From an uncultured Gammaproteobacteria bacterium (GTDB taxonomy: Bacteria > Pseudomonadota > Gammaproteobacteria > Thiotrichales > Thiotrichaceae), in contig CAVXCT010000034.1 of assembly GCA_963760355.1 (NCBI GenBank), positions 1,311-65,310 of the forward strand: a DNA stretch of 64,000 nucleotides, in the 5' to 3' direction. The notes beneath the pieces were generated by a model. That model was given only the letters and a program-made list of their open reading frames with translations, was not told the origin of the DNA and ran no database searches. A program made the position numbers and the translations under genes. Shown here piece after piece: positions 2,558-51,079 of this stretch. Position 1 is the first letter of the stretch; each line of letters starts with the position of its first letter.

Positions 2558-2620
2558 ATTTCATGAGTCGTCCATTCCAAAAAATGAAATGGCAAGCTCA
2601 TGGAAAGTAGAGGGGTGACT
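2558..2620 (-). repeat. REP-like arm (degenerate) with outer hairpin
   Basis: aaagtagaggggtgac at 2604-2619, preceded by a catgag(2562-2567)/ctcatg(2597-2602) stem; lies between convergent genes. Confidence 0.6.
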
Positions 2621-2650
2621 AAATAACAGGACTATTTATCAGATTCTCAA

Positions 2651-3497
2651 TTAATTAGCCTGCATGCGATGTTTCAAGCGCTGCTTTCGACTTTCCTTCA
2701 TTTGCTGACGAAATGACAATAGTTTACTATATTGTTTTTGGTCTAAAACCGCTTCTATTTTCATTCGCATCTCGCCACTTTCAACAACCATTTGTTCAAC
2801 CCGTTTTGCATTCACGTCGGCTAAAGCAAAAATATCCGCTTTGTAACTTGGGCTGCGAGAGTCCATTGTATTTAATTGTTGATTGAATTCCAGAACCTCT
2901 TCACGTAATGGTTGCATTATTACTTCTTTTTCAACGATTAAAGCTTTGATTTCAGTAATTTGCTCAGTACTAAGAACTAGTTGATTCAGTTGAGGAGGAG
3001 GTAAACGTAAATGCCGAGCCAGGGTTCTTAAGTCTTGATTGTTGCTTTGATCAGATTTCTGTTTCTGCTTTCCCTGTTTATTACCATGCATTTGTTGGTA
3101 ATGTTCTTTATAACCCGCTGGCATATCAATTTCGCCATTGAAAATGTACTCGGCAATGATTTTGGCATCTTCTTTTGGAGCAGAGACTGGAGGCATTAAA
3201 TTAAAGTGTCTTATTGCACCAGGCATTAAGCTTTTATTGGCATCAGGTTTTTCTAACCAGCTAGTAACCGCATTGACAAAGGAATCTTTATCTTGATGCA
3301 CACTTAAATAATGCATTCTGACACCAGCAATAGGTGGAGCTATGCGCTTCTGCTTATTCATGCCGCCGGTAAGGCCATGACAGACCTTACAGTGTTGGTT
3401 AAAAAGTTTAGGCCTTTTGATATTTTGGTTTTATCTGCAAATGGAAACCGCAAAAGAAAATTACGGCTACTGCAATAACTGTTTTCAGCGCATACAT
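2651..3497 (-). CDS. Secreted c-type cytochrome fused to a Spy/CpxP-like helical domain, frameshifted near the 5' end
   Basis: ATG 3497 with signal-like leader; CKVCH heme motif at 3377-3391 in frame with the 2651..3361 ORF; APP..MP..MP pattern; C-terminal L(S/D)xxQ repeats (LSTEQ, LDQKQ). Confidence 0.7.
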
Positions 3498-3646
3498 AGA
3501 ACTTTATCCCCAACTAAGATAGAAACTCATATAGACTAAATGGAGACTAACTGCAGTGATAAATGCAAAAAAATTGATTTTATTCAATAATGACTTTGAG
3601 GGTAGAAAAGTAAAAACAAGCAACACTTCTCTGGGCATAGATATAT

Positions 3647-3673
3647 AAAACCCCCTAAAAGTAGGGGGGTGAC
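3647..3673 (-). terminator. REP-like arm that also forms an intrinsic terminator-like hairpin for the LysR gene
   Basis: Minus strand reads cccccta-cttt-taggggg-tttt just after the corrected LysR stop (3678-3680). Confidence 0.6.
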
Positions 3674-3677
3674 TTAT

Positions 3678-4615
3678 TTACATCTGAACCACTTTTTGCT
3701 TAGAATCTTGATAGCAGTCATTCATAATGTCGATAAAACGTTCTGCTGGCGTAGAAAGGAATTTACCCTTTCGTGTAACAATACCGTAAGCGTACGTTTA
3801 GGGAAATATTTGTCTAAAGGTATAACAGTGAGTTCTTTTCTATCATCTGCAGTAAGACAAACGTCGGTTACTATGGATATACCTAAACCAATCTTTACAT
3901 ATCGTTTAATAACTTCCCAGCCACCCGCTTCCAGATTGACTTTGTAATTTGTATTGTTTTGTGCAAATACCATTTTAACAATACGCCAGGTACTTAAATG
4001 ACGCGGCGGTAATATCAATCCATAAGGACTGATGTCTGCCAGTGTAATGTTCTTTAATTTAGAAAGAGGATGGTCTTTAGGTGCAATTAAAACAGGGTTG
4101 TAAGATACGATAGGTTTGGGTTCCATATCATCTGGAATCTCTAGCATAGAGCCAATTGCAATATCAATATCGTTATTTCTAAGCATTTCAAGGCCATCAC
4201 GACCTGTTTCATTGGCTAAGCGTAACTTAATTCCAGGGTATTCTGTGGTAAATCTTTGCACCGGTTCAGGTAGTACATATAGAATTGTAGATTCACCAGC
4301 AGCGATTGATAGTTCACCCGTGCTCATGTTGCCACAATGTGCGCTAAAGGTTTCATGTAGATGATCAACGTTTTGTACGAGCGGTTCTGCAAGGTCATAA
4401 AGGATTTTTCCTTCAACCGTTAGCATAATCTGAGGGCCATTACGTTCAAAAAGAGAAACCTCCATCTCTCTTTCTAATGCCTGTATTTGTAAAGATACAG
4501 TAGGTTGGCTGGCGAATAATTTCTCCGCGGCCTTAGTCACACTGCCATGTTTAGCTACCTGGCAGAATGCACGCAACGTTTTAAGCCTGTTTTGCTTATA
4601 GTAAATAGTAGTCAT
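3678..4615 (-). CDS. LysR-family transcriptional regulator (CysB/Cbl-like), frameshift near 3790
   Basis: N-terminal HTH (GSVTKAAEKLFASQPTVSLQIQALE); after FPKRT an alternate frame gives YGIVTRKGKFLSTPAERFIDIM...* ending 3678. Confidence 0.85.
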
Positions 4616-4884
4616 CTTTATCTCTTTTAGCGGGAAAAGTAATATTAAACACTGAATGCATTGAATAGTCTAATAATTAATTATTATTATAGTAAATTAA
4701 ATTGATAGTGTGTCTTTTAAATACTACTTATGAATCAATAAAATAATATAGATATATGATGAATGAAAAAATGTTTTTAATTTGAGTAAAAAGCGGAGTG
4801 TATATTCTTCCTGCTTATCAGTTTATACTCTGTTTTCCAAACTACACACGATAATATCTTTTATGGTTTTAAATGGAAAAGTAA

Positions 4885-5736
4885 ATGATAAATAGCCGTC
4901 ATCGAACTGTTTTTATTGTCTCAGAAAGTACCGGTATAACCGCTGAAACAATGGCACACAGCTTGTTATCACAATTTCCACATTTAGAATTTACCTATCA
5001 CCAGCGCTCATTCGTTGATAGTGAAAAAAAAGCACGTAAACTAGTAAAAGAGATTCATAACGTAGGTGAAAATCAAGGTTTTAAGCCACTGGTTTTTGCA
5101 ACTATGCCAGAAACACATATTAATGATATTTTAGCTTCGGCAAGTTGCCATTATTACGAAATATTTGAGAGCTTTGTTGATAAAATCGGACACGATTTAC
5201 ACACAGAACCAACGCGTGAATCAGGTTTAAGTCATGGTATGATCAACGATAAAACCTATGATGCACGAATTGAAGCGCTAAATTTCACTCTCAAACATGA
5301 TGATGCGATGGTATTAAAAACCATCGATCAGGCAGATATCATTATAATTGGTGTCTCTAGATCGGGTAAAACCCCCACTTCACTGTATTTAGCGTTGAAA
5401 TTTGGTATCAAAGTGGCAAATTACCCCATAACTGAAGATGACTTTGAAAAAAATGAGTTACCCCAGGTATTGCTGAATAATAGAAAAAAGATATTTGCAA
5501 CATCGATAAAAGCGAAACGACTTAAACAGATTCGTGAAAAGAGAATTCCAAATAGTGAATATTCATCTCTGCAGACCTGTAAAGATGAAATAGCTAAAGC
5601 TACTAAGCTTTATAAAAAGTATGGGTTTGTACCGATGGATGTAACCAAACGATCTATAGAAGAATTAGCCGCTCAGATCATAAAAGTTTTCAAAGGCAAA
5701 CAAGACATTACGTTATACCCCTCAAAGGATATTTAA
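4885..5736 (+). CDS. ppsR: PEP synthase regulatory kinase/pyrophosphorylase (DUF299)
   Basis: SESTGITAE, GVSRSGKTPTSLYLA; directly upstream of ppsA. Confidence 0.92.
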   Translation: MINSRHRTVFIVSESTGITAETMAHSLLSQFPHLEFTYHQRSFVDSEKKARKLVKEIHNVGENQGFKPLVFATMPETHINDILASASCHYYEIFESFVDKIGHDLHTEPTRESGLSHGMINDKTYDARIEALNFTLKHDDAMVLKTIDQADIIIIGVSRSGKTPTSLYLALKFGIKVANYPITEDDFEKNELPQVLLNNRKKIFATSIKAKRLKQIREKRIPNSEYSSLQTCKDEIAKATKLYKKYGFVPMDVTKRSIEELAAQIIKVFKGKQDITLYPSKDI

Positions 5737-5750
5737 AGGATTAATTATTG

Positions 5751-8113
5751 ATGAATACCTATAATGTGATCTGGTTAGATCAACTTGGCATAAATGATAT
5801 TGACAGCGTAGGGGGTAAAAACGCCTCTCTCGGTGAGATGATTCAAAATCTCGGTAATTTAGGGGGTGAATGTACCCGGAGGGTTTGCGACAACCGCTGA
5901 TGCCTATCGTGGATTTCTGGAGCACGAAAATCTTGGTAATAAAATCAATGCTTTATTAGATGAACTTGATGTAGACAATCTTGAAAGTCTAGCCAAAACA
6001 GGTAAGCAAATTCGTGACTGGATCATGCAGGTTCCATTGAAAGAAGACCTTGAAGATGATATCAATGCAGCCTATGCAAAACTGGTCGGACAATACGGTG
6101 AGGAGGTTTCATGGGCAGTTCGTTCGTCAGCAACCGCTGAAGATTTACCGGATGCGTCATTTGCAGGTCAACAAGAAACCTTCTTAAACGTTTCTGGTAT
6201 TGAAGACATCAAAGTAGCCATTCGTAAGGTTTTCGCATCATTATTTACTGATCGTGCTATCTCATACCGCGTCCATCAGAATTTTGATCATGCAGGCGTC
6301 TGCGTTGTCGGCGGGCATTCAGAAAATGGTTCGTTCAGACATTGCAGCCAGTGGTGTTATGTTTACGCTAGATACTGAAACAGGCTTTGATAAAGTAGTA
6401 TTTATCACTGGCAGTTATGGACTTGGTGAAATGGTGGTGCAGGGTGCTGTGAACCCTGATGAATTTTACGTTTATAAAAAGAACCTGACTGAAAACAAAC
6501 CGGCAGTACTCACACGAACACTAGGTAGTAAAGCGATACAAATGGTTTACGATATCGGTGGTGAAGAGCCCGTTAAAATCATCGATGTTGAAGCTGATAA
6601 ACAAACCAAATATTGCATAACGGATGAACAAGTTGAAGAACTGGCTAGACAAGCTGTCATTATAGAAAAACATTATAAACGCCCGATGGATATTGAGTGG
6701 GCGATGGATGGCAACGATGGAGGACTTTATATCGTTCAGGCTCGACCTGAGACTGTACAAAGCCAGGCGGGCAATGTTATTGAACGCTTTAACTTAAAAG
6801 AACAAGGACCGATTTTGTCAGAAGGACGCTCCATCGGTGGTCGTATTGGCGCAGGTACAGCACAAATCATCATGAGCCTTGATGATATGGATCAGATCAA
6901 GCCCGGCGATGTACTAGTTACAGATATGACAGATCCAGACTGGGAGCCAATTATGAAACGTGCCTCAGCCATAGTGACTAATCGCGGTGGACGTACCTGT
7001 CACGCAGCCATTATTGCACGTGAACTCGGCGTGCCCGCAGTGGTAGGTTGTGGCGATGCTACTGAGACCATCCCGGATAATGAAGATGTTACTGTATCCT
7101 GTGCCGAAGGCGATACTGGTTACGCTTATCAGGGTTTACTTAATTTTGAAGTTACCACAACTGAAGTTAATACCATGCCTGAGCTGGATTTAAAGGTCAT
7201 GATGAATGTTGGTAATCCAGATAAAGCCTTTGATTTCTGCCAGCTACCCAATAAGGGCATAGGTCTGGCTCGTATGGAATTCATCATTAATAATATGATT
7301 GGCATTCATCCGCGCGCATTGCTGGATTATGAACAACAATCAGATGAACTTAAATCAGAGATTGATCCGCGCATTTCAGCTTATGCAAGCCCACGAGACT
7401 TTTTCGTGCAAAAAATTGTTGAAGGTGTGTCTACCTTAGCCGCTGCTTTTTACCCACAACCAGTTATTTTGCGCATGTCGGATTTTAAATCGAATGAATA
7501 CGCAAATCTAATCGGCGGCACAGAATACGAGCCACATGAAGAAAACCCGATGATTGGTTTCCGTGGTGCAGTGCGTTATATCGATGAAACCTTCCGCCCG
7601 TGTTTCGAAATGGAATGCGAAGCGATTAAATACGTACGTGATGTGATGGGATTAACCAACATTGAAGTAATGATTCCGTTTGTACGCACATTGAAAGAAG
7701 CTAAAAGTGTGACTAAATTACTCGCTAAAAACGGTTTAGGGCGTGGTGAAAATGGTCTACGCCATATAATGATGTGCGAATTACCATCCAATGCTGTTTT
7801 AGCAGGTAAATTCCTTAAATATTTTGATGGATTCTCGATTGGCTCTAACGATATGACACAGCTGACATTAGGTCTGGATCGTGATTCTGGTCTAGTTGCT
7901 GAAAGCTTTGACGAGCGTGACCCTGCAGTTAAGAAAATGCTTAAAATGGCAATAAAGGCAGCGAAAAAGCAGGGAAAGTACGTTGGCATCTGTGGTCAAG
8001 GCCCTTCAGATCACCCAGACCTTGCAGAATGGTTAATGAAACAAGGAATCGATAGCGTCTCGCTAAATCCTGATACAGTAATTAATACCTGGAAACGTTT
8101 AGCGGCTAAATAA
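5751..8113 (+). CDS. ppsA: Phosphoenolpyruvate synthase, two +1 frameshifts
   Basis: ATG 5751 ([11 protein letters not shown]); shifts at G-run ~5861-5866 and at ~6300; [36 protein letters not shown]. Confidence 0.95.
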
Positions 8114-8141
8114 TTAAAAGTACACTCTGTTGCTTGTAAAT

Positions 8142-8253
8142 AAAAAAGGCTAAGCCGTAGCGTAGCAGAGACTACGCTGGAAAGCAGTGACGGCTGCCCG
8201 AAGGGCGTGTTTTTCATTTAAAATGATAAAAAACACCTAAAAGTAGGGGGGTG
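8142..8253 (-). repeat. REP-like arm plus module C (long outer hairpin module)
   Basis: Reverse complement aligns with 28059-28171 and 61378-61471: cacccccctactt, hairpin, gcccttcggg, hairpins, tagcc-T6. Confidence 0.85.
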
Positions 8254-8606
8254 TTATCAATAAGGGTCCCTTGTAAAGCCGTGCTCAGATCATAAAACTC
8301 CGTTTAAGGAAAAGAAGCCAAAGTTGTTAAACAATATCTGCTAGAGCAATATTTAATGCCTAAATCAAGATTTATTTACTGTGGTTGGGAAACTTTGGGT
8401 GGTGAAGGTATTTACAAATACCATGATTAATCTGTCAGGGTTACTATGAATTCTTCTGCAGGTTTAATTATAGGATAGGAATAAACGGGCAGATATACCA
8501 ATATTTATAATAGTAGCTACTGTGTACCTTGAAGACCCGTGAGTCTATGCATACAAAATCACAAGCAATTGAGAATAGTAAAATGAGCCTAATTACCAAA
8601 TAAGCT

Positions 8607-8634
8607 ATTTAACATAATATAGATTATGCGTACT
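8607..8634 (-). other. dif site (XerC/XerD recombination site)
   Basis: Minus strand AGTACGCATAA-TCTATA-TTATGTTAAAT versus E. coli dif GGTGCGCATAA-TGTATA-TTATGTTAAAT; XerD arm identical. Confidence 0.9.
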
Positions 8635-8703
8635 ATTAGTGCCTTCCGAAGTGTTGCTAATTAGGTTATTCTCAAAGATACAACACACTTACCATTAATT
8701 ATA

Positions 8704-9924
8704 TTAAACCTGCATCTTTAAAGGTATAGCCTCTCTAGCTAATAGTTCCGCCGTAGACATCGCTATCATGGCCCGTTCATTGATTGGGATGAAATGTACA
8801 TCGACTATAGATTGATCACTGCTTATTTTATGTAGACTACTTTCATTGGCAATATTATTTAACTCGACACCAAGCCAAGCTAATGGCTCACTTATTAATT
8901 TTCTAGTTAAATCCGAATTCTCACCAATGCCTGCAGTAAATACAATCGCGTCTATGCCTCTTAAAACGACTATCTGCGCACCAATTTCTTTTACAACTCT
9001 GTAGCAGAATAATTCATCGCTTCTGGCTTCTTTGGCTTCTGGATCAGAACTTTCTGCAAGTACACGCATATTGTTACTGATTCGTGAAACGCCTAATAAT
9101 CCTGATTTACGATATAAAATGTCTTGTACTTCATCCGCACTTGAACTTTTTTCATTTCTTAGGTCTATAACCAAACCCGCATCAGATTGAGCCGCTACGC
9201 GTGCCCATAACTAATCCATCTAATGTGCTAAAACCCATAATAGTCGCAACGCTACGTTTATTGTGCAGCGCACAAAAGCTTGCGCCATTACCAAGGTGAG
9301 CAAAAATTATCCGTCCATTCGCTTTATCACCTAAGTCCTTTGATAAGCGTGAAGCAATATATTGATAAGATATTCCATGAAAACAGTAACGAATAAGTCC
9401 ATCTTCAGAATATTTTCTGGGAATGGCATATATTTTCTCTAAACGACTTTGCGTATGATGAAAAGCAGTATCAAAACAGGCTCTTTGTGGTAATTCTGGC
9501 GAATGATCCCTAATTGTTTGTATCGCAAGCTAAGCAATGATGTTGATGCAATGGCGCAAGCGGAATATAACTCCTCATGGTTTCCATATTTTCATCGTTT
9601 ATAACGATAGGCTCATGGGACTCACTGCCTCCATGAACGACTCTATTACCAGCTGCTACAGGATGAAAAGCCACGTAACGACTGTATAAACGTTCTAGAA
9701 GATTAGTAATTAACCATACGTGAGTCCGCATCTTTAGGAATATGATCGAATGGTTCAGTGACTGTTAAAGCATTATCGCCTATGGAAGCAATCAGTTCTG
9801 GTTGTGTGCCAATACGTATAACTTTACCTTTAAGCAGTGGTTCTGTTAAATGTGAAGATACAGGACATGAAGCAAATTTTAAGCTTGATGAGCCTGAATT
9901 TACTACTAAAATGACATCAATCAT
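8704..9924 (-). pseudogene. ackA: Acetate/propionate kinase, three +1 frameshifts and substitutions in conserved motifs
   Basis: VILVVNSGSSSLKF; GNRVVHGG; APLHQ; ACFDTAFH; RYCFHGISY; AHLGNGAS; GTRSGSI; VFTAGIGENS, spread over four frame segments. Confidence 0.75.
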
Positions 9925-9972
9925 GGTTTGGGGTTTGCTTTTAAAAGAAGTGTATTTCGATATTAAGAAGTA

Positions 9973-9998
9973 CACCCCCCTACTTTTAGCGAGCTTTT
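9973..9998 (+). repeat. REP-like arm
   Basis: cacccccctacttttagcgagctttt, ~50 bp upstream of the ackA start. Confidence 0.8.
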
Positions 9999-10131: not shown

Positions 10132-10905
10132 TTATAGCTCAAATAGCCGATTAAAATTATCTGTCGAAACTTTAGCAATATGTGGATAGCTACAGCCGCG
10201 TAAGTCAGCCATCTTCTCTGCAACATGCTTCACATAGGCGGGTTGATTCGGTTTGCCACGTTTTGGTACAGGGGCTAACCACGGAGAGTCCGTTTCGATA
10301 AGAAACCTATCTTCAGGTACTTTCTTAGCTACTTCTTGTAACTCTTTGGCACTATTGAAAGAAACTATCCCTGAGAAAGAGATATAGAAATTAAGTTTCA
10401 TTGCTTGTTGTGCAGTTTCCCAGTCTTCTGCAAAACAATGCATGACACCCCCCACCTTTTGAGCATTTTCTTCCGCCAGGATACGTAACGTGTCTTCTTT
10501 GGCGGAACGGGTATGAATGATGAGTGGTTTCTGGGTTTTTATGGCTGCCCTTATATGCGTTCTGAATAGATCATGTTGCCAGGTCATATCGTCATCTTCG
10601 CATCTGAAATAATCGAGCCCTGTTTCCCCTATTGCAATAACTTCTTGGTGCTGAGTTAATTCCACTAACTCCTCAACTGTAGGAGCATACGAGTCTTGAT
10701 GAGTTGGGTGAACCCCAACAGAACAATAGATATTTGAATATTGTTGTGCCGGTTTCAATACGTCCTGGAAGTGTTCGGTATCAATACAAACACACAGAAA
10801 TTGGCTGACATCTGCTTCTTCAGCAACATCTACCATTTTCGAGAATTGGTTATCGAAAGGAGTTAAATCAATTTTGTCTAGATGACAGTGTGAATCGGTA
10901 AGCAT
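10132..10905 (-). CDS. TatD-family DNase
   Basis: DSHCHLD, GVHP, IGETGLD, IIHTR, GVMHCF, ETDSPWL. Confidence 0.93.
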   Translation of the reverse strand: MLTDSHCHLDKIDLTPFDNQFSKMVDVAEEADVSQFLCVCIDTEHFQDVLKPAQQYSNIYCSVGVHPTHQDSYAPTVEELVELTQHQEVIAIGETGLDYFRCEDDDMTWQHDLFRTHIRAAIKTQKPLIIHTRSAKEDTLRILAEENAQKVGGVMHCFAEDWETAQQAMKLNFYISFSGIVSFNSAKELQEVAKKVPEDRFLIETDSPWLAPVPKRGKPNQPAYVKHVAEKMADLRGCSYPHIAKVSTDNFNRLFEL

Positions 10906-11120
10906 TTTTAGAGAAATTAATAATTAAATAGCAATATAATAATATAGTAATACTATGGATTATTGCAATAATAAAACATAAGTTTACATACTTTAATTAA
11001 TTTAAATTAGTGGGATCAAATTAAATAACACAAAGTTATAATAGGTTATAGATCATTCGTCAAAATTAGTGTTTGTTTATGCTGATATTATCGGCGTTAA
11101 GAACCGGTGATAAGAATCGT

Positions 11121-11522
11121 TTAGTAGTTACGCACTAATGGTGGCACGTTTGCTCTATTGCCAAGCATTGTTTCAATGATTAACTTTACTTTGGCTTTTG
11201 TTGTACCGATAAACTGTATACCTAAACCTTCAGTGCCACGCTCACAAGATTCTGGCGCAATCCACATCACTTTCCCAGGAATTGCGAGTTTTTTATCTGT
11301 TGACTTAAGGTGCATTGAAACAATTATTTCATCACCAAAATTATAACTTTCACTTTTGGTTGGAACGAAGATAGCTCCTCCACGAACGAATGGCATAAAA
11401 CTAGAGTGTAAGGCTGCTACATCATTAAGCGGGAGTTTTAAAATTGTCCGCTGTGGTTGAACTTCTTCTTTTTTTACGGTTACAGCGATTGCTTTTTTTA
11501 TGTTGTCTTCTTGTGTGTCCAT
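11121..11522 (-). CDS. pilZ: Type IV pilus PilZ-type protein
   Basis: LHSSFMPFVRGGAIFVPT...GKVMWIAP...GLGIQF; holB-pilZ-tatD synteny. Confidence 0.85.
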   Translation of the reverse strand: MDTQEDNIKKAIAVTVKKEEVQPQRTILKLPLNDVAALHSSFMPFVRGGAIFVPTKSESYNFGDEIIVSMHLKSTDKKLAIPGKVMWIAPESCERGTEGLGIQFIGTTKAKVKLIIETMLGNRANVPPLVRNY

Positions 11523-11603
11523 AGTTACGCGTAGCTATATGTTTTTATAATTATTAGTAAGTAAGTTACTGAATATATTTGTTTTAGTTATCAGTCTTAA
11601 CTT

Positions 11604-12635
11604 CTATTTTCCTGCTTCTAACCATAACAGTAACATGTTTTCAATAAACATCAGAGTATTAACAGACGTATGGAGATACTGTTTTTGCTTGATCAGTTGT
11701 TGATAGAGCTGCCATTGTTTATTGGGTTTGATTTGAGTGAATAAAGATTGTTGGATTTGTTCGAATTTATCTGTTTCTTTAGTTACATTTGAATCAAAAT
11801 TAATAGCACCACATTGAGCTTGCTTTATAAGCAACTGTGACCAGGTAATTTGCCAATTGAGCAGAGAATCAATATCAGTTTTCTCCCATTTTTTTGCAGT
11901 AGTAACAACCGCTAAACTTTCGTTTACGATACCTGTTAGATCTTCAAGAAAACCTGATCTGGCAGATATATCATCGTCTGTAATATCCAATGCTTTTAAG
12001 GGTCTGGATGCTGCAATATTTAGTCGTAGTTCAGCTTGGCTAATTTCAGAGTAATTATTTTTCAACCAATCTAATGCCTGTTTTTTAGATGGGCTAGTTA
12101 CTGTTATTTGCTGGCATCGGCTTTTAATAGTCGGCAGGATTTTCCCTAGGTGAGAAGCAACGAGAATGATCACACTATTATTAGCAGGCTCTTCCAGCGA
12201 TTTGAGTAAGCTATTAGCAGCATTGTTATTCATGCGTTCTACAGGATTAATAATAGCCACACGGTGTGTATTAAAACTGCGGCTATAAGTTAAAAACTCA
12301 CTTAATTTACGTATTTGATCGACGCTAATTTGTTGTTTATCTTCGGGTAATTCGATTTTAGTATAATCAGGGTTGGCACCGGATTCGTATGTTTTACAGG
12401 ATTGGCATTGTCCACAAGCTTCAAATTGAACTGGTTGCATACAGAGTAAGGATTTAGCCATTTTTTTAGCGAGTATATGCTTACCAATACCGTCTTCTCC
12501 TACAAGCAATAATGCATGAGGTAAGTGGTTTGCTGTGCGCGCTTGTATAAAGTAGTTCCAGTTTTTTTCAAGCCACGGGTAACTAACAGTGTTTAGTTTT
12601 TTGTGATTCGCTGAGTGGCCGCTTGAATTTTGCAT
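11604..12635 (-). CDS. holB: DNA polymerase III delta' subunit
   Basis: HALLLVGEDGIGK, Cys cluster, NAANSLLKSLEEP, LPTIKSRC. Confidence 0.93.
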   Translation of the reverse strand: MQNSSGHSANHKKLNTVSYPWLEKNWNYFIQARTANHLPHALLLVGEDGIGKHILAKKMAKSLLCMQPVQFEACGQCQSCKTYESGANPDYTKIELPEDKQQISVDQIRKLSEFLTYSRSFNTHRVAIINPVERMNNNAANSLLKSLEEPANNSVIILVASHLGKILPTIKSRCQQITVTSPSKKQALDWLKNNYSEISQAELRLNIAASRPLKALDITDDDISARSGFLEDLTGIVNESLAVVTTAKKWEKTDIDSLLNWQITWSQLLIKQAQCGAINFDSNVTKETDKFEQIQQSLFTQIKPNKQWQLYQQLIKQKQYLHTSVNTLMFIENMLLLWLEAGK

Positions 12636-13279
12636 TACAGAATTTGACTCAACAAGTCATCAATTTGACTTTGAACAGTATTTAAATCGTACTGAGCATG
12701 AATTATGCGATACCGAGTTTTATTTTCTTCTGCCATCTTTAAGTATTCAGACCTGACGCGATTAAAGAAGTCGATATGTTGTTGTTCAAACCTATCTGCT
12801 TCACCCCTATTTTGTGCTCTTGCCAAACCAATGTCTGCATCAATATCAAATAGGAAAGTGTAATCTGGACGTAATGAACCTTGTACCAGGTTTTCTAATA
12901 CTTGTATGTTGTCTATGGCGATGTTTCTTCCAGCGCCTTGATAGGCGTAGGTAGCGTCTGTAAATCGATCACATAACACCCATTTGCCCTGCTCCAGAGC
13001 GGGGATAATTTTACGTTGCAAGTGCTCAGCGCGAGCAGCAAACATCAACAGTAATTCGGTATTGTGATGCATTTCCGGGAAATCTTTAGAGATAAGTAGT
13101 TCTCTAATAGCTTCACCCAACTCAGTGCCGCCCGGCTCTCTGGTCAAAAGTATTTCATGCCCTGCAGCTACAATATTTTCGGCGATATAGTCAATATTGG
13201 TCGTTTTACCAGCGCCTTCAACCCCTTCAAATGTGATGAATACACCATGATCTGCTTTTTTGGCTGTTACCTGAGTCAT
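12635..13279 (-). CDS. tmk: Thymidylate kinase
   Basis: FITFEGVEGAGKTT, TREPGGT, CDRFTDAT. Confidence 0.96.
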   Translation of the reverse strand: MTQVTAKKADHGVFITFEGVEGAGKTTNIDYIAENIVAAGHEILLTREPGGTELGEAIRELLISKDFPEMHHNTELLLMFAARAEHLQRKIIPALEQGKWVLCDRFTDATYAYQGAGRNIAIDNIQVLENLVQGSLRPDYTFLFDIDADIGLARAQNRGEADRFEQQHIDFFNRVRSEYLKMAEENKTRYRIIHAQYDLNTVQSQIDDLLSQIL

Positions 13280-14310
13280 TGACTCCCTTTATAACGATTA
13301 GCTTTGCCATCTAGCAGGTATTTGATAACGGCTTTTTTGTGTTCGGCATAGGTTTTGGAAAAGTGGGAATAACCATCACCCTTGGCAACAAAATATAACA
13401 TATCACCATCTTCTGGATTAAATGCTGCTTTGATTGAAGCTGCACTGGGGGTAGCAATTGGTGTGGGTGTTAAGCCTTTTCTGGTATAGGTGTTATAGGG
13501 TGTATCTTTGAGTAAGTCTCTTTTTCTAATATTACCTTGATATTTATCTCCCATGCCATAGATTACTGTTGGGTCAGTTTGTAGTAACATGCCTTTCTTT
13601 AGGCGATTGATAAAAACACGTGCTACTTTTCCTCGATCTTCAGGAGTTCCTGTTTCTTTTTCAATGATAGATGCCAGAATAAGCGCATCGTAAGGTTTCT
13701 TAATTCCCTTGAACGGTTTACGCTTTTCCCATTCGGACTTGAGTAATTTCACCATTGCATTATGACTACGTTGCAGAAATTGCAGGTCTGATGTGTTTTT
13801 CGGATAACTAAATGTATCCGGGTAAAACCAGCCTTCTGGTTTGTGGTGCTGATACTTGGTTTTAAGTTTGGACATGATGTTTTTATAATCATCATCAGTG
13901 AGTGTCTGTTTTAAGTTATTATCACTTTTAATTAAATCAACGATTTCACTGAATTTAGTACCTTCAGGAATTCTTGTTTGATATTGAATGGTCTTACCTG
14001 AGGCGAACAAAGTTAAAACATCACTCGGTGTCATATCTTTCTTAAGAGCGTATTCACCTGCTTTTATTTTACTATCTTGTTTGTTGAGTCTGGCAAGAAT
14101 TCTTAATAGAAAGGCTGGTTTAACAATTTCTTTTTGCTCTAAATTCTTGGCAACTATTTTTATGTTGCTGCCTTTTTTTATTTCAAAACTGGGTACATCG
14201 GTAGCCAGTTTTGAAGTTTTAAACGAATTAAATTGATTGAAGGCATAGAACGATGCTGCACCCGCAATTAGAAGAAAAAGAGGTAAGAACACTTTAAAAA
14301 AGAATCTCAT
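13276..14310 (-). CDS. mltG: Endolytic transglycosylase MltG (YceG)
   Basis: EGWFYPDT, ASIIEKET, LQTDPTVIYG, PYNTY; fabF-mltG-tmk synteny. Confidence 0.94.
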   Translation of the reverse strand: MRFFFKVFLPLFLLIAGAASFYAFNQFNSFKTSKLATDVPSFEIKKGSNIKIVAKNLEQKEIVKPAFLLRILARLNKQDSKIKAGEYALKKDMTPSDVLTLFASGKTIQYQTRIPEGTKFSEIVDLIKSDNNLKQTLTDDDYKNIMSKLKTKYQHHKPEGWFYPDTFSYPKNTSDLQFLQRSHNAMVKLLKSEWEKRKPFKGIKKPYDALILASIIEKETGTPEDRGKVARVFINRLKKGMLLQTDPTVIYGMGDKYQGNIRKRDLLKDTPYNTYTRKGLTPTPIATPSAASIKAAFNPEDGDMLYFVAKGDGYSHFSKTYAEHKKAVIKYLLDGKANRYKGSQ

Positions 14311-14413
14311 GTTTCCTCTCTATTTACTCTCTATCTACACTGGAAGAAGCTTAATAAGCTTCATGTAACTATTTGTTTTACAATAACTATCAAAAAATAC
14401 TTTGATAAATTGA

Positions 14414-15658
14414 TTAAACCTTTTTGAAGATTAATGTGCCATTTGTGCCGCCAAATCCAAATGAGTTGCTCATCGCTACATCTATTTTAGAATCACGAGC
14501 CGTATTAGCGACATAATCCAGGTCGCATTCTGGATCTTGGTTATCTAAATTAATCGTAGGTGGAAGAATCTGATAGCGAAGAGCTAACACACTAAATATA
14601 GCCTCGATACCACCTGCTGCTCCCAGTAAGTGGCCTGTCATAGACTTGGTTGAGCTGACTGCTACTTTTTTGGCATGATTGCCCAAAGCGAGTTTAATTC
14701 CATTGGTTTCAGCTACATCACCAGCAGGAGTAGAAGTTCCATGTGCATTGATATAATCAACATCTTCTGCATTTAGACCTGCATCTTTAAGTGCATGATT
14801 CATGCAGCGAGCTCCGCCCTCACCAGTCGCCAAAGGCGCACTCATGTGATAAGCATCACTGCTCATGCCAAAACCAGCCAACTCACAATAAATTTCAGCT
14901 CCACGGGCTTTAGCGTGTTCATATTCTTCTAAAATCAGCACACCAGCGCCATCGCCAAGGACGAAACCATCACGATCCTTATCCCATGGGCGACTTGCAG
15001 CTTCTGGGTCATCGTTACGCGTTGAAAGTGCACGCATCGCTGCGAAGCCACCTATTCCTAACGGTGTTGAACACATTTCTGCGCCACCACCCAGCATAAC
15101 GTCAGCATCACCGTAGCTGATCATGCGAGCTGCATCTCCAATACTATGTGTAGCTGTTGCACATGCTGATACAGGTGACATGTTATGGCCTTTTAAGCCA
15201 TGCATGATAGATAAGTTGCCAGCAACCATGTTAACGATGGTACTAGGAACAAAGAAAGGTGAAATCTTACGAGGACCGCCGCTTAAGAAGGCTTTGCTAT
15301 TCTTTTCAATTGAACCTACACCACCGATACCAGATCCTACAATAACGCCAATTCTCTCAGCATTCTCATCGGTTACTATTAAACCAGAATCAGTTAATGC
15401 ATCAGTACCAGCGCCAACACCATAATGGATAAATGGGTCCATTTTTTTCTGGTCTTTGGGTGTGATGTAATCAGTCGGATTAAAATCATCAACATTTCCT
15501 GCAATTTTCACAGAAAAGTCAGTCGCGTCAAATAAATCAGGTGATATCTTATTAATACCGCTTACACCTTCAATAATATTTTTCCAGGCTTTCTCTATTT
15601 GAGAACCTACTGGAGAAACAATTCCAAGACCTGTAACAACTACTCGACGTTTTGACAC
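14414..15658 (-). CDS. fabF: 3-oxoacyl-ACP synthase II
   Basis: [35 protein letters not shown]. Confidence 0.97.
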
Positions 15659-15687
15659 TAGATAATCCTATTTTTGATAAAACAATA

Positions 15688-15750
15688 AAAAAAACCGCAG
15701 TGACTATAGAAGCTCAAGTAACTCTCAAGGCTAAATAGTTCTGCGGTTTT
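15688..15750 (-). terminator. Hairpin with U-tract between acpP and fabF (partial terminator or mRNA stabiliser)
   Basis: aaaaccgcag...ctgcggtttt 10-bp arms extended by gactat/atagtt; T-run follows on the minus strand. Confidence 0.55.
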
Positions 15751-15773
15751 CTCACAGCGTATGTGACTACTAA

Positions 15774-16010
15774 TTAACCTTGGTTATTATTTACGTAGTC
15801 AATCGCTAACTGAACTGTAGTAATTTTTTCTGCTTCTTCGTCTGGAATTTCAGTGCCGAATTCTTCCTCAAGAGCCATAACTAACTCAACAGTATCTAAT
15901 GAGTCCGCGCCCAAATCATCAACAAAAGAAGCTGCATTTGTAACTTCAGACTCATCAACTCCTAATTGTTCTACTACGACACCTTTAACGCGTGCTTCAA
16001 CATCACTCAT
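15774..16010 (-). CDS. acpP: Acyl carrier protein
   Basis: [21 protein letters not shown]. Confidence 0.98.
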
Positions 16011-16125
16011 GATTCTTTATTCCTTTAATTTAAAAAAACGTATTATTACTGAATATACAATTAGACTATTGTAGAGAAATTCAAGGCTCTACACAATTAT
16101 ATATTACTGATAAATTCTCTATAAC

Positions 16126-16872
16126 TTATGACATAAACATGCCGCCATTCACGTGTAATGTTTCTCCTGAAATATAATCCCCCATATCTGAGGCTAAAAA
16201 CAGTACAGCATTTGCAATATCATCTGCTTGGCCTAATTTACCCAATGGAATATTTTTTAGTAATGTACTGCGCTGATCTTCAGATAATTCACGAGTCATA
16301 TCTGTATCAATTAAACCAGGCGCAACGACATTAACCGTAATCCCTCTGGATCCAATTTCTTGTGCTAAGGATTTTGAGAATCCAACCATGCCCGCTTTAG
16401 CTGCTGCATAGTTTGCCTGACCTGCATTACCGGTAGCACCGACAACAGAAGAAATTGAGATAATTCGCCCATTCCTTGCCTTCATCATTCCTCTTAAGCA
16501 GGCTTTGCTAAGTCTATAAACAGAAGTGAGATTAGTAGAGATAATGTCATTCCACTCTTCTTCTTTCATTCTTAACATCAAGTTATCACGTGTAATGCCT
16601 GCATTATTCACAAGAATCGTGATAACGCCAAACTCTGTCGTGATGTCTTTTATTAAATCGTCAATAGAATCAGTATCTGTTACATTTAATACTTTACCAA
16701 CACCATTTATATCTGCTTGTTTGAAGTAATCACTTATGGAATTGGCACCAGAATCACTAGTAGCAGTGCCGATGACGGTAGCACCAGCTTTACCAAGTGA
16801 TTCTGCAATTGCGCGACCTATGCCTCTGCTAGCACCGGTTACCAGAGTTACTTTTCCTTCTAAATTAATCAC
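16126..16872 (-). CDS. fabG: 3-oxoacyl-ACP reductase
   Basis: TGASRGIG, NNAGITRD, YAAAK. Confidence 0.97.
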   Translation of the reverse strand: MINLEGKVTLVTGASRGIGRAIAESLGKAGATVIGTATSDSGANSISDYFKQADINGVGKVLNVTDTDSIDDLIKDITTEFGVITILVNNAGITRDNLMLRMKEEEWNDIISTNLTSVYRLSKACLRGMMKARNGRIISISSVVGATGNAGQANYAAAKAGMVGFSKSLAQEIGSRGITVNVVAPGLIDTDMTRELSEDQRSTLLKNIPLGKLGQADDIANAVLFLASDMGDYISGETLHVNGGMFMS

Positions 16873-16919
16873 TTATTCTTCTCCTATTTTTTATATGCCG
16901 CTGGTGACCAATATTTATC

Positions 16920-17855
16920 TTATGTATTACAAGCTTCGAGTGCTTTATCTAAAGAAGCTGGGTCACTGACATAAAGACTACCGAGTGCTCGATTGATTCT
17001 TCTATTCAAACCAAACAAAACTTTACCAGGGCCAAACTCAATAATGGTATCCGCGCCTAGCGTCTTATTAAGACTTTTGATTGTATCTGTCCAGAACACA
17101 GGTTTGTAAAGTTGTTTCGCTAATGCTGCTTGTTTGTCAGCTGCAGATGCATAGCTTATCGCCTCGACATTCTGTATTACTTCAAACTCTGCATCGTTGA
17201 AGTTAGTGGCTAACAGGCTTGCACTTAATTGATTCGCAGCATCTTTCATTAGGCTGCAGTGCGAAGGTACACTTACTGGCAGTTTTATAGCGCGTTTAGC
17301 TCCTGCTTCTGATAATTTTTCAATCGCAACATCTACTGATGAAGTATTTCCTGCGATAACGACTTGACCAGGTGAGTTGAAATTAACAGCTTCTACAATA
17401 CCATCTGTTATCGATGAACAAATTTCAACAATTTGATTATCTTCTAAACCCAGGATAGCAGCCATCGCACCTTCACCAGCGGGAACCGCTTGTTGCATTA
17501 AACTAGCGCGTTTTGCGACGAGTTGCATAGCAGCTTTAAAATCTAGTACTCCTGAAGCTACTAATGCTGAATACTCTCCAAGACTATGACCCGCCATCCC
17601 GACTGGAGCACACCCCCCCACTTTTAGCCATAATTTCCAGACTGAAACACCAGCAGCTAACATCAGGGGTTGTGTATTTTCAGTTTTATTAAGTTCAGTG
17701 GCGTCTTCAGCTGTTGTCATTGACCACAAGTCTTTGCCAATTGCGTCTGAGGCTTCTTCAAAAGTCGCTTTTATTTCTGGGTATTCAGTTGCCAGTTCAC
17801 CTAACATACCGATTGCTTGAGACCCCTGCCCTGGAAAAACAGCTGCAAATTGCAT
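16920..17855 (-). CDS. fabD: Malonyl-CoA:ACP transacylase
   Basis: FPGQGSQ, GHSLGEY; start placed at MQFAAVF (17855). Confidence 0.95.
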   Translation of the reverse strand: MQFAAVFPGQGSQAIGMLGELATEYPEIKATFEEASDAIGKDLWSMTTAEDATELNKTENTQPLMLAAGVSVWKLWLKVGGCAPVGMAGHSLGEYSALVASGVLDFKAAMQLVAKRASLMQQAVPAGEGAMAAILGLEDNQIVEICSSITDGIVEAVNFNSPGQVVIAGNTSSVDVAIEKLSEAGAKRAIKLPVSVPSHCSLMKDAANQLSASLLATNFNDAEFEVIQNVEAISYASAADKQAALAKQLYKPVFWTDTIKSLNKTLGADTIIEFGPGKVLFGLNRRINRALGSLYVSDPASLDKALEACNT

Positions 17856-18145
17856 TTTAAATTCCTTGTGATGTAAAAATTCGCCCATATCATATAGCTA
17901 TTAGGTGATTATGCACACTCTAATATGATGAAGATGAAGATATTAATATTGAGTACATGATTTAAATGCATAAATTCAGTAGTACCCTTCTTATCAAAAT
18001 CTCCTAAAAAATCAGAACTTATATCAATTTTCTAACTTGTAAATACATGGTTAAGCTCTGGTCGTTTATAATAGGCAGAAATTACTTGTTAAATAGAGAG
18101 AGTAATGGATAATACGCCGTTTCCAAAAGGAACTAGTTTTACAGC

Positions 18146-26080: not shown

Positions 26081-27994
26081 TTACTGATTTTTGGGTTCTA
26101 TTGAACCCGGTACTATTTGTGCATTGAATCTATTTTGTAGCTCAATAACAAAAGGATCTGATTGTATATTTAGTTCAGCCTGATGTTGAGTTTCTTCTGT
26201 TTTTCTATGTGCTCTTTGTGCAGGAGTTTCATTGTTGCTGTTTGAAGTATCTGATGTATTTTTTACTTGTGACTCTTGAATTTGCAGCACTAATCGGTAA
26301 TCTGCATTGTAGTAACGACATAGAGCATCTTTTATTTCTTGTTCAATACTATCTGCAAGTAATCCTTCACTGCCCTTATCAAGGCTTAATGAAATAATAC
26401 CATCTTCTTGGCAGTCTAACAGACAGTGTTTTATTAATTCCGCAGCTCTACCACTTAACCCTAAGTTGGGGACAACTTTATGCCAGGCAAGGTTTAACCT
26501 ACTCTTAATCGTTTCCTGATCAACTTTTGCTACTTGATGTTTTGGTTGATCTGTTTCTTGCGGTTCTTTTTTAACCTTAGAAACAGATGTTTCTATTAAT
26601 GATTCTTCTATAGCCGTTGATTTTTGTGATTCTACATTTTGCTTATGACTGGGAGCTTGAGAAGAAAGGTTTAAGTAGTCTGGGGGTTCGTCCCATGCTG
26701 GTACTTCATCCATAGGAAGTAGTGATACAGATTGGCGAGTACTATTATCTGTTTGTGTATCTCTTTCTTTATTGAGCTTTTCTTTATCGTACTTTTCTTT
26801 GTCCCGTTCTTTATTATTTTCTTTTTCAGTTAAGTTCGCGTCATTCGCTAGTGTTTTTTTTTTGCTTGACTCTAAGTCAGGAGTGGCTTGTGTATTAGCA
26901 GTCTCGAGTTGCATTCCGGTTTTTAGCGGCCTGAATGACAACATGCGCAATAGCATCATCTCAAAACCACTTTTTGGATCCGGAGAAAGGGATAAATCAC
27001 CTCTTCCCTGAAGTGCTATTTGATAATAGAGTTGGACATCTTCCTTAGATAAGCTTTGTGCAAGATTTTTAATACTTTCTTCATCGTTTATCGCATCGGG
27101 TACCACTTGTTGCACGGCGACTTGATGCAATAAGGCGATTAAAGCGTCACAACTGGCATCGAAATCAGGACTAATTGATGCAAGTTCATCGACTTGTCCC
27201 AGTAATGCCGCACCATCACCGCTAGCAACTGTTTCTAATAATGAAACTAAGGGTTCATGAGAAACGCTACCCAACATATCGCGTACGGCGTTTTCAGTGA
27301 CTGTTTCACCGGAGTATGCAATGGCCTGGTCTAGCAGACTTAAGGCATCGCGCATACTGCCATCCGCAGCTTTACCTAACAACTTTAAAGATGGTTCCTC
27401 AAAGGCGATTGATTCTTGCTTCAGTAAATAGGCAAGGTGTGATGATATTTTTTCTAAAGGCATGCGCTTTAGATTGAATTGCAAACAACGTGATAATACC
27501 GTTGCTGGTAATTTTTGCGGATCGGTTGTTGCAAATAAAAACTTAACGTGCGGAGGTGGTTCTTCCAGAGTCTTTAACAAGGCATTAAAACTATGTCCGG
27601 TAAGCATGTGAACCTCGTCGATCAGATAAACTTTAAAACGTGCTCTGGTTGGCGCGTATTGAACATTTTCAAGTAGTTCGCGAGTATCTTCAACCTTGGT
27701 GCGGGACGCCGCATCGACTTCGATTAAATCAAGAAAGTTGCCGGAAGCAATTTCTAGGCAGCTATTACATTTACCACAAGGTTTTGAGGTAACGCCAGTT
27801 TCACAATTCAGGCATTTGGCGAGAATTCTGGCTATGGTGGTTTTACCCACACCACGTGTTCCGGTAAAAAGGTATGCATGATGCAGACGATCGCTGTCCA
27901 AAGCATTGATCAAAGCACGTAATACATGCTCTTGACCGACCATTTCAGTGAAATTTTGCGGTCGCCATTTTCTTGCCAGGACTTGATAACTCAT
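26081..27994 (-). CDS. dnaX: DNA polymerase III tau/gamma
   Basis: YQVLARKWRP, GTRGVGKTT, DEVHML, LLKTLEEPP; C-terminal tau domain. Confidence 0.97.
   Translation of the reverse strand: MSYQVLARKWRPQNFTEMVGQEHVLRALINALDSDRLHHAYLFTGTRGVGKTTIARILAKCLNCETGVTSKPCGKCNSCLEIASGNFLDLIEVDAASRTKVEDTRELLENVQYAPTRARFKVYLIDEVHMLTGHSFNALLKTLEEPPPHVKFLFATTDPQKLPATVLSRCLQFNLKRMPLEKISSHLAYLLKQESIAFEEPSLKLLGKAADGSMRDALSLLDQAIAYSGETVTENAVRDMLGSVSHEPLVSLLETVASGDGAALLGQVDELASISPDFDASCDALIALLHQVAVQQVVPDAINDEESIKNLAQSLSKEDVQLYYQIALQGRGDLSLSPDPKSGFEMMLLRMLSFRPLKTGMQLETANTQATPDLESSKKKTLANDANLTEKENNKERDKEKYDKEKLNKERDTQTDNSTRQSVSLLPMDEVPAWDEPPDYLNLSSQAPSHKQNVESQKSTAIEESLIETSVSKVKKEPQETDQPKHQVAKVDQETIKSRLNLAWHKVVPNLGLSGRAAELIKHCLLDCQEDGIISLSLDKGSEGLLADSIEQEIKDALCRYYNADYRLVLQIQESQVKNTSDTSNSNNETPAQRAHRKTEETQHQAELNIQSDPFVIELQNRFNAQIVPGSIEPKNQ
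26854..26863 (-). other. A10 slippery run, candidate tau/gamma recoding site
   Basis: agc-A10-cactagcgaatga at codon 378; stops follow within 1-4 codons in both shifted frames. Confidence 0.65.
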
Positions 27995-44417: not shown

Positions 44418-47306
44418 TTATCTATAGCTTTCAATAGAAGGACAAGAGCATACCAAATTACGGTCGCCGTACACATTATCTATACGATTAACTGTAGGCC
44501 AATACTTACTGGTTGCAATGACACCCTTAGGCATAACTGCTGTTTCCTGTGAATACGGCCGATCCCAGTTTTCAGAAATATCAAATATAGTGTGAGGTGC
44601 ATTAACCAAAGGATTATTGTCCACAGACCAAATACCTGTTTGAACATTATTGATCTCTTCTCTGATCGCTATCATTGCTTCACAGAAGCGATCTAACTCA
44701 TATTTAGATTCTGATTCTGTTGGCTCGATCATTAGTGTGCCAGCGACAGGAAATGACATTGTGGGCGCATGGAAGCCATAGTCCATCAATCGTTTGGCGA
44801 TATCTTCCTCAGTAATTCCGGAGTCATGTTTTATTGGGCGAATATCGATGATACATTCGTGAGCCACCCGACCATTCTTGCCTCTATATAAAACTGGATA
44901 ATGAGGTGCCAATCGCTCGGTGATGTAATTAGCGTTGAGGATCGCCATTTTACTTACTTCTGCATTACCCTTAGCACCAAGCAGCTTCATATACATCCAT
45001 GAAATAGTCAGGATAGAAGCACTACCGAAAGGAGCCGCTGATACGGCATGAGTTTTATTATCAGTGTTTTTAATGTGGCCTGGTAAAAATGGTACCAAAT
45101 GGCTACGAACACCTATTGGACCTACTCCAGGTCCGCCACCACCGTGAGGTATAGCAAAGGTTTTATGTAGATTAAGATGTGAAACATCAGAACCAAATAA
45201 CCCAGGCTTACACAGGCCTTTCTGAGCATTTAAGTTGGCACCATCAAGATAAACTTGACCACCACAATTGTGGATGATCTCGCACATTTCAACGATTCCT
45301 TCCTCAAACACACCGTGAGTAGATGGGTAGGTAACCATGATGCAAGCTAGGTCATCTTTGTGAGCTTCTGCCTTTTCACGTAAGTCTTTTAAATCAACAT
45401 TACCGTTTTCATCACAATCCACTAAGACAATTTTCATTCTTGCCATGGCTGCTGATGCTGGATTGGTGCCATGAGCAGATGTAGGGGTTAAACAAATATT
45501 ACGATGCCCCTGCCCTATGCTTTTATTGTAACGGTTAATAGCAACAAGACCCGCGTATTCACCTTGGGCACCTGAATTCGGTTGCATAGAAACTGCTGCA
45601 TAGCCTGTTACTTCAGATAACCACTCTTCCAATTGATCGATCATTTCATAATAGCCGTCGGTTTGATCACGTGGAGCAAAAGGGTGAATATTCGAAAATT
45701 CTGACCAGCTAAGAGGCATCAATTCACTCGCTGCATTTAACTTCATCGTGCAAGACCCTAAAGGAATCATTGCATGAACTAGAGATAAATCTTTGTTTTC
45801 AAGACGTTTTAAGTAACGCATCATTTCAGTTTCTGTTTGATGCTGCTTGAAAACTTCATGAGTGAGGTATGTAGTTTCACGTTGATAGGCTTCTGGAATA
45901 CCTGATTCACAATTACCATTGATGATTTGCTCATCAAGCTGACTAACTGTTAGACCATGGCCATTGCCAAAGAAGATATCAAATAAATCTTGAAGATCAT
46001 TAGCGGTTTTGGTTTCATCAAAACTCACACCGAGTTTATCTGAATCAACTAAGCGTAAATTAATACCTTTACTTAAAGCTGCATCATAAAAATCCTGTTG
46101 ATGGTCTCCAACATAAATAGTTAATGTGTCAAACCAAGATGTATTTACAATATATTCTGCTTTAGACAGGTCACTTTGACGGACAGCTGCAGCAAAAATA
46201 CTGGTTAAACGATTGATTCTTGATGCAATTCGCTTGAGTCCTTCAGCGCCATGATATACCGCATAAAAACCAGCCATATTAGCCAACAACGCCTGTGCAG
46301 TACAAATATTGGATGTTGCTTTGTCACGGCGAATATGTTGTTCACGAGTCTGCATAGCCATACGCAGACCTTGATTGCCACGAGAGTCAACGGATACACC
46401 TATGACACGTCCAGGAACAGAACGTTTTAGTTTGTCTCGTACAGCGAAAAAAGCAGCATGAGGTCCACCAAAGCCCATTGGAACTCCGAATCTTTGAGAG
46501 CTTCCAAAAACAATATCTGCACCCATTTCACCCGGTGCCTTTAATAACACTAAAGACATTAAGTCAGCTGCTACACAGACTAATGCTTTTTGATCATGTG
46601 CCTGAGTGATTATGGATTCGATATCAGTGACAGATCCAGTTGTTCCAGTGTATTGAAGCAGAACACCAAATACTTCGTGATTTTCTAATTCATCTTGAGG
46701 GTTACCAATGATTAATTCAAAACCAAAATATTGGGCACGTGTCTTCAATACTTCTAGAGTTTGAGGAAAGACTTCTTCATCCACAAAGAATTTATCTGTT
46801 TTTAGACGATTAGATCGTTTACATAAAGCCATGGCTTCAGCTGCTGCTGTCGCTTCATCGAGTAATGAAGCGTTTGCCATATCCATGCTAGTTAAATCCA
46901 TGACCATTTGCTGAAAGTTGAGTAAACCTTCCAAACGGCCTTGTGATATTTCAGCCTGGTAAGGTGTATATGCTGTATACCATCCTGGGTTTTCTAATAC
47001 ATTACGCTGAATTACGGGTGGTACGATGGTGTCGTAGTACCCCATTCCAATAAATGATTTATTTACACTGTTTTTATTAGCTATACCACGCAGAGTGTCT
47101 AAAGCTTCTCTTTCAGAGCAACTATCGTCAAGTTTAAGTGGCTCTCTGATTCGGATACTTTCAGGTACCGTTTTATCAGCTAATTCATCAAGAGATGAAA
47201 CCCCAATTACTTCTAACATTTCTGAAATGTCTACTGTTTGAGGTCCTATATGACGAGAGATGAACTCATCATGCTGATCTAAATTATCTAGTGGTAAGTT
47301 TTTCAT
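44418..47306 (-). CDS. gcvP: Glycine dehydrogenase (P protein)
   Basis: [42 protein letters not shown]. Confidence 0.97.
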
Positions 47307-50182: not shown

Positions 50183-51079
50183 CTATCCACGCGGATGATG
50201 TTTTTGATGAATCGTTTGTAATCGTGCTTTAGCTACATGAGTATATATCTGTGTAGTTGACAAATCACTATGACCCAACAATAACTGTACGACCCTCAAA
50301 TCTGCTCCATGGTTCAATAAATGTGTAGCAAATGCATGTCTTAATGTGTGAGGTGACAGTTTTTGTTTAATTCCAGACTGCTGTGCGTATCGTTTAATTA
50401 GATACCAGAATGCTTGTCGTGTCATACCAGAACCTCTTCGAGTAACAAAAAGTTGGTCACACACACCTTTTCCAGACATTAACTCTACTCTAGACTCTGC
50501 TAGATATTTTGTTAACCATATAACGGCCTCATCACCCATAGGCACAAGTCTTTCTTTATTACCTTTACCTATAACTCTTACAACCCCCTGCTGTAGGCTT
50601 AATTGATTATATCGTAACGAAACAAGTTCAGAGACACGTAACCCAGTAGCATAAATGAGTTCTAACATAGCTCTGTCTCGAAGACCTATCGGGTCATCAA
50701 TCAATGGAGCACTGAGTAGCATTTCAATTTCTGTTTCAGTCAAAGTACTAGGCAAGGGTTTACCCAACTTTGGTAACTCCATTAAAGCAGTTGGATCTAC
50801 TTCGATAACGCTTTCTCTTAGTTGATAACGATAAAAGCGTCTTAACGTAGAAATAACACGGGCTATACTAGTCGTTTTACTGCCTTTTTGTATACGTTCA
50901 GCAATATAATCTAATAAGAGAGAGTAGTTTACTGCTAATAAACTACTTTTTTTAGAAGCTAGCCAGATTGATAATGCTTTAAGATCTCGCCCATAAGCGG
51001 CTAAGGTATTATCACTTAATCCTCTTTCTGACCATAGGGCATCCAGAAAACTCTCAATTATATCGATATCACTAGACAT
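50183..51079 (-). CDS. xerD: Tyrosine recombinase XerD
   Basis: GLSDNTLAAY, RDRAMLELIYATGLRVSEL, SPHTLRHAFATHLLNHGADLR, STTQIYTH. Confidence 0.96.
   Translation of the reverse strand: MSSDIDIIESFLDALWSERGLSDNTLAAYGRDLKALSIWLASKKSSLLAVNYSLLLDYIAERIQKGSKTTSIARVISTLRRFYRYQLRESVIEVDPTALMELPKLGKPLPSTLTETEIEMLLSAPLIDDPIGLRDRAMLELIYATGLRVSELVSLRYNQLSLQQGVVRVIGKGNKERLVPMGDEAVIWLTKYLAESRVELMSGKGVCDQLFVTRRGSGMTRQAFWYLIKRYAQQSGIKQKLSPHTLRHAFATHLLNHGADLRVVQLLLGHSDLSTTQIYTHVAKARLQTIHQKHHPRG

Follow-up and report, generated by a model that had tools for sequence, protein, structure and literature searches.

The window analysed here, a 64,000-nucleotide stretch of DNA, is taken from the 113-kb contig C34 (bases 1311-65310), which belongs to a draft assembly of 45 contigs with a total length of 3.67 Mb and a G+C content of 40%. 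On its left-hand side, two convergent genes are separated by a 590-bp spacer that is AT-rich and intergenic: ppsA (PEP synthase; 5751..8113, + strand) to the left and an ackA-family kinase gene (8704..9975, - strand) to the right. This spacer contains a candidate for dif, the 28-bp XerC/XerD recombination site, at 8607..8634 on the minus strand (C34:9917-9944). The + strand of the site reads ATTTAACATAA TATAGA TTATGCGTACT, with the XerD arm at 8607-8617, the central region at 8618-8623 and the XerC arm at 8624-8634; on the minus strand it reads AGTACGCATAA-TCTATA-TTATGTTAAAT (XerC arm-centre-XerD arm). Neither an RNA family (Rfam scan) nor a promoter or terminator signal above background was detected in this spacer.

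A first-pass annotation of the window had described this site as a dif with a perfect XerD arm, a spacer one base away from that of E. coli and a 9/11 XerC arm, and our sequence comparison agrees. Of 5426 complete E. coli genomes, 5130 contain the E. coli reference 28-mer GGTGCGCATAATGTATATTATGTTAAAT (median, one copy). Against it, the site matches at 25/28 positions (XerD arm 11/11, centre 5/6, XerC arm 9/11), with three mismatches in total. The differences are that the XerC arm begins AGTA, where that of E. coli begins GGTG, and that the centre is TCTATA, where that of E. coli is TGTATA. Like the experimentally defined dif, the site has an 11-6-11 layout over 28 bp with partly palindromic arms. 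An AT-rich, intergenic region is a natural place for a chance look-alike without function, but 100 shuffles of the window gave zero dif matches, and by our own estimate only about 1e-5 to 1e-4 matches with three or fewer mismatches are expected genome-wide. Moreover, the site is single-copy and syntenic across relatives whose nucleotide identity is only about 70-80%. The idea of a chance resemblance is effectively refuted already, and we give it almost no credence.

We also carried out the search for other dif copies that had been proposed as a check. Across all 45 contigs, no second site was found at five or fewer mismatches, whether to the E. coli dif or to that of the window. Three weaker candidates, at C17:139838, C17:89163 and C34:79504, were rejected: they comprise one 6-mismatch and two loose-pattern matches, they are at chance level, and the genes around them are ordinary (those near C17:89163 and C17:139838 encode an AAA ATPase, a DUF2201 protein and a methyltransferase). 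The 45-contig draft, which may have gaps, therefore contains one copy, and related genomes contain none or one. Exactly one match with three or fewer mismatches was found in 11 of the 18 other genomes of the genus and two matches in none of the 18; the seven genomes with no match at this threshold are all MAGs of only partial completeness (66-95%). Throughout the genus, the XerD arm does not vary; the changes are all in the outer XerC arm and in the centre, which occurs as TCTATA, TGTATA or TATATA.

Both genes that flank the site are broken in this assembly. ppsA is split by two +1 insertions, and the ackA-family gene is in four pieces with three frame changes. The latter is intact in two relatives, G011 and G018 (404-408 aa), and ppsA is also intact in relatives. 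By comparing the open reading frames of relatives with this genome, we found that frameshifts, mostly +1 insertions, split about 10% of orthologues, and that the affected genes are always clustered over 5-15 kb. In the first 80 kb of C34, all of the split genes lie within C34:236-11270 (window <1-9960), a patch that includes ppsA, ackA and dif. Other dense patches are located at C35:39.8-53.4 kb, C39:40-49 kb, C8:25.5-30.2 kb, C15:5.6-11.5 kb and C34:95.5-100.6 kb, and at ftsK (C29:68246-70910). We considered a terminus-specific decay of ppsA and ackA and rejected it, as clustered frameshifts are about as frequent 0.4-1.1 Mb from dif (14/116 and 5/45 split genes, vs about 17 genes in 289 orthologue pairs near dif). 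The patches are probably low-quality assembly rather than pseudogenes, and the broken ppsA and ackA fall in one of them. Although the dif 28-mer itself lies in this probable low-quality patch, its sequence is corroborated by an identical 28-mer in G018.

To the right of the ackA-family gene, a housekeeping block on the minus strand runs toward dif (10132..17888), with tatD/ycfH, a pilZ-like gene, holB, tmk, mltG, fabF, a probable acpP placed from a gap in the ORF calls, fabG and fabD. The stretch from tatD to fabD lies 1.5-9 kb right of dif and is followed by aceK, glcB and a malic enzyme gene at 10-16 kb and by recR, ybaB and dnaX at 16-19 kb. The dnaX gene (26081..27994, - strand; 637 aa) is 17.5 kb from dif and scores 751 bits against NF005942; NCBIfam confirmed the identities of holB, tmk, mltG, fabF, fabG, fabD and dnaX. 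The housekeeping block adjoins dif in G011 and G018 as well, and the arrangement is therefore old in the genus; in a third relative, G002, an insert of about 4 kb of regulator genes intervenes. The first-pass annotation had considered it a notable layout for dnaX, holB and the fab genes to lie so close to dif. The layout does exist and is shared across the genus, but it is unremarkable: none of these genes is of the high-dosage kind, and their position is for this reason only a mild curiosity.

The same annotation had reported that genes mostly point toward the site, with 5 of 7 on the + strand to the left and about 35 of 48 on the - strand to the right. A greedy ORF call gave similar figures, 5(+):2(-) to the left and 12(+):33(-) to the right. 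Cumulative GC skew, one of the checks that had been suggested, climbs on C34 to a peak at 10-16 kb and then declines for about 100 kb to the end of the contig at 113 kb. Its maximum falls 5.7 kb to the right of dif, and the local skew is noisy, out to about 34 kb.

A second suggested check concerned the polarity of KOPS words. We derived polarity markers independently of C34, with the other contigs oriented by skew and the octamers ranked. On these other contigs, the leading:lagging counts are 75:15 for the KOPS consensus GGGNAGGG, 58:8 for GAGCAGGG and 40:3 for GAAGAGGG. Right of dif on C34, words of the KOPS family occur 11(-):1(+), that is, almost always pointing toward dif, and in the 9.9 kb of C34 left of dif there are none. 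The nearest such word on the right is a GAGCAGGG at 12987..12994 (- strand), directed toward dif. The two KOPS-like octamers that had been spotted by eye are both present as GGGCAGGG on the minus strand, at 17824..17831 and 45508..45515, and also point toward dif. For all polar words on C34, the best change-point from + to - is at C34:9553-11286, an interval of 1.7 kb that brackets dif at C34:9917-9944. A change-point scan of all contigs found no comparably supported internal + to - switch on any other contig. C42 was examined as an alternative terminus and rejected; it has a larger local skew bump than C34, but, as at the other skew bumps, its polar words show no strand switch, and it contains no dif.

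The dnaA gene is located on a different contig, at C7:111994-113361, and an origin-type skew minimum or plateau is seen at about C7:100-160 kb, in a contig whose polar words are mixed. In practical terms, dif anchors the replication map of the draft, with the terminus on C34 and the origin and dnaA on C7. As only 9.9 kb of C34 lie to the left of dif, our picture of the left arm comes mainly from relatives. No end overlap with a left-hand neighbour contig of C34 was found, and the left arm is left unscaffolded because the relatives disagree on which contig this neighbour is (C29, C17 or C39).

Three relatives with longer contigs, G002, G018 and G011, were used to follow the skew on both sides of the site. 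In G002 (contig of 589 kb), the cumulative skew peaks 5 kb from dif, the skew being positive over about 200 kb before the site and negative over 160 kb after it, and KOPS-family words are found 19:3 (+:-) on the left and 1:9 on the right. In G018 (190 kb), the maximum is 0.6 kb from dif, and the corresponding counts are 2:0 and 1:8. In G011 (1.28 Mb), the maximum is drawn out into a plateau at 10-40 kb to the right of dif, and the counts are 7:0 and 0:6. This last contig is collinear with C34:308-79329 straight across dif, and its skew remains negative 0.4 and 0.8-1.1 Mb beyond dif. KOPS words thus converge on dif in all three relatives, and the skew maximum is at or near dif. The GC-skew shift and KOPS convergence of a replichore junction are therefore found both here, with a left arm of only 9.9 kb, and in the three relatives.

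These data also bear on where exactly replication ends. A genuine dif could lie in a region whose forks usually meet tens of kilobases away, in which case the window would be without the exact termination point. The plateau in G011 points in this direction, as does the skew of C34, with its displaced maximum and its noise to about 34 kb, and the plateau agrees with Kono et al. (2011; PMC3025954), who concluded that forks do not have to fuse precisely at dif. Such an offset is less easily reconciled with the skew maxima of G002 (5 kb or less from dif) and G018 (0.6 kb), or with the change-point of polar words on C34, which brackets dif within 1.7 kb. This is the one serious qualification to the reading of the site. 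We consider an offset of tens of kilobases unlikely, though not negligible, and any offset of this size would still be inside the 64-kb window.

Synteny maps show that rearrangements among the relatives centre on dif (G002:C7 at about 412-502 kb, G018:C4 at about 22-47 kb and G011:C2 at about 117-120 kb). A 34-kb segment, C34:21997-56165, is inverted and on the other side of dif in G002, which also has about 7 kb of two-component regulator genes beside dif. In G018, a 16-kb block (C10:91.7-107.4 kb) is inserted between ppsA and dif, and in G011 a 3.3-kb ABC transporter region, absent from this genome, lies between dif and ackA. This dif-centred pattern is typical of terminus regions.

The variable content beside dif in G011, G018 and G002 might instead be taken as a sign that an ectopic or mobile Xer site, either an IMEX attachment scar or a plasmid-type resolution site, is present in place of the chromosome's own dif. 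IMEX sites, as in the Vibrio CTX/TLC phages and the gonococcal genetic island, use the same XerCD recombinases and have a dif-like sequence (PMC5357621). An IMEX leaves two dif-like sites around its insert, whereas only a single site, and no insert, is present in this genome. A search for a second, degenerate dif-like site bounding an insert found none above chance within 40 kb, elsewhere on C34 or in the rest of the assembly, half-site matches being no more frequent than chance predicts, the flanking genes are ppsA and ackA, and no mobile cargo pointing to an integrated element was found next to dif. A candidate for such a site is seen in G002, where a degenerate 17-mer made up of an XerC arm plus centre, GATGCGAATAATCTATA (G002:C7:424570, L022:15570), lies 4.5 kb from dif. 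We rejected it as the mark of an IMEX: it matches at 14/17 positions in direct orientation, which is chance level, 17-mer matches with three mismatches also occur at random in G000, and the cargo between it and dif consists of two-component and FNR-type regulator genes. Plasmid Xer sites (cer, psi and pdif) belong to a plasmid or module, often with multiple copies or accessory sequences. The present site does not fit this description, as it is single-copy and lies on a 113-kb housekeeping contig that is collinear with the 1.28-Mb contig of G011. A mobile site is also hard to square with housekeeping flanks, synteny across the genus and a position at the polarity switch, and we regard this origin as very improbable.

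We conclude, with a probability of about 0.93, that 8607-8634 is the chromosomal dif of a Cocleimonas-type marine gammaproteobacterium (Thiotrichales) and marks the replichore junction and terminus region. The affiliation comes from ppsA, whose closest named matches are in genomes labelled Cocleimonas sp. (89% and 83% identity); a corresponding search with holB gave no match. The earlier proposal that the window spans the replication terminus is borne out, in that the skew, the KOPS words and a REP-like repeat (described below) all switch strand at dif and the relatives agree.

The genes for the cognate machinery are present in this genome. A tyrosine recombinase gene, xerD (50183..51079, - strand; 298 aa), is located in the window itself, 42 kb from dif, and its product scores 391 bits against TIGR02225 (cut-off 329.6). 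XerC is encoded on contig C27 (TIGR02224, 372 bits; cut-off 335), and both recombinases exceed the NCBIfam equivalog cut-offs. The gamma domain of FtsK is encoded on C29 (PF09397, 93 bits), which gives the genome an FtsK gamma domain alongside its skewed KOPS words. The ftsK reading frame is broken once in the assembly (C29:68246-70910), probably by a sequence error.

By analogy with the E. coli paradigm, an odd number of crossovers would leave the sister chromosomes as a dimer. Septum-bound FtsK would load at polar KOPS-type words and pump the DNA toward dif, where the AGTACGCATAA arm is the expected binding site of XerC and the TTATGTTAAAT arm that of XerD. Activated by the gamma domain of FtsK, XerD would then begin strand exchange across the 6-bp centre TCTATA, and XerC would finish the exchange to give two monomers. 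XerCD binding, the order of cleavage and the dependence on FtsK at this dif are thus predictions transferred from E. coli.

Judged by its sequence, the system appears to resemble that of E. coli closely, with a single-copy 28-bp site of 11-6-11 layout, an identical XerD arm, convergence of skew and KOPS words, and genes for XerC, XerD and the FtsK gamma domain. It is also like the dif sites predicted across the Proteobacteria by Kono, Arakawa and Tomita (2011; PMC3025954), which are conserved 28-mers, one per chromosome, near the GC-skew shift point. This dif is real yet ordinary, a textbook feature. A literature search with the genus name found no published description of a dif for Cocleimonas, the matches listed being ecology and genome surveys only; the site is therefore a new instance, from a genus that has been little studied, and not a new kind. 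It provides a reference dif for Cocleimonas and its Thiotrichales relatives, and knowledge of Xer recombination is unchanged by it.

Two further observations concern polar words elsewhere in the genome. On C33 (114 kb), the polar words run ++++-------+++++++++++, which suggests a recent inversion inside one replichore. The octamer GCGGACGGCAG (core CGGACGGC) is more strongly strand-biased than any other octamer, with 48:1 on the leading strand genome-wide, and has no copy on C34.

The REP-like repeat consists of an arm, AAAAGTAGGGGGGTG, with the consensus AAAAA..gCCTAAAAGTAGGGGGGTG.CTTT, of which there are 513 copies genome-wide. Of these copies, 85% are on the leading strand, compared with 57% for genes, and on contigs other than C34 the core of the arm, GTAGGGGG, occurs 350:63 (leading:lagging). 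On C34, the arms are distributed 2:0 (+:-) left of dif and 4:11 right of it. The nearest on the left, with a AGTAGGGG core, is at 8242..8249 (+ strand), as expected for the left replichore, and the nearest on the right is at 9977..9984 (- strand), as expected for the right replichore. These two inverted arms bracket dif and ackA simply because the polarity switch falls between them; further arms in the window include 20291(-), 28065(-) and 37662(-). The strand bias is 75:9 between two lagging-strand genes and 92:22 between two leading-strand genes. Because it holds in either gene orientation, it tracks replication and not transcription. In this genome and in each of the three relatives, four in all, the arm changes polarity at dif.

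We tentatively propose that dif may be the flip point of a second, much denser polar system, in which the roughly 500-copy arm would be either the footprint of single-strand insertion by Y1/HUH enzymes or a selected architecture signal that converges on dif like KOPS. The target of insertion by Y1/HUH enzymes is the lagging-strand template (10.1101/279083), and insertion of this kind could yield such an arm bias. A link of the arms to RAYT was considered and found no support, as the GTAG-G6 arms do not flank Y1_Tnp genes as REPs flank RAYT. Of the Y1_Tnp loci in the genome, four are intact and about five decayed; Y1_Tnp genes (PF01797, IS200/IS605-type) lie at C25:22337-22699, C28:4073-4432, C31:79680-80039 and C29:45704-46063, the last with one internal TGA.
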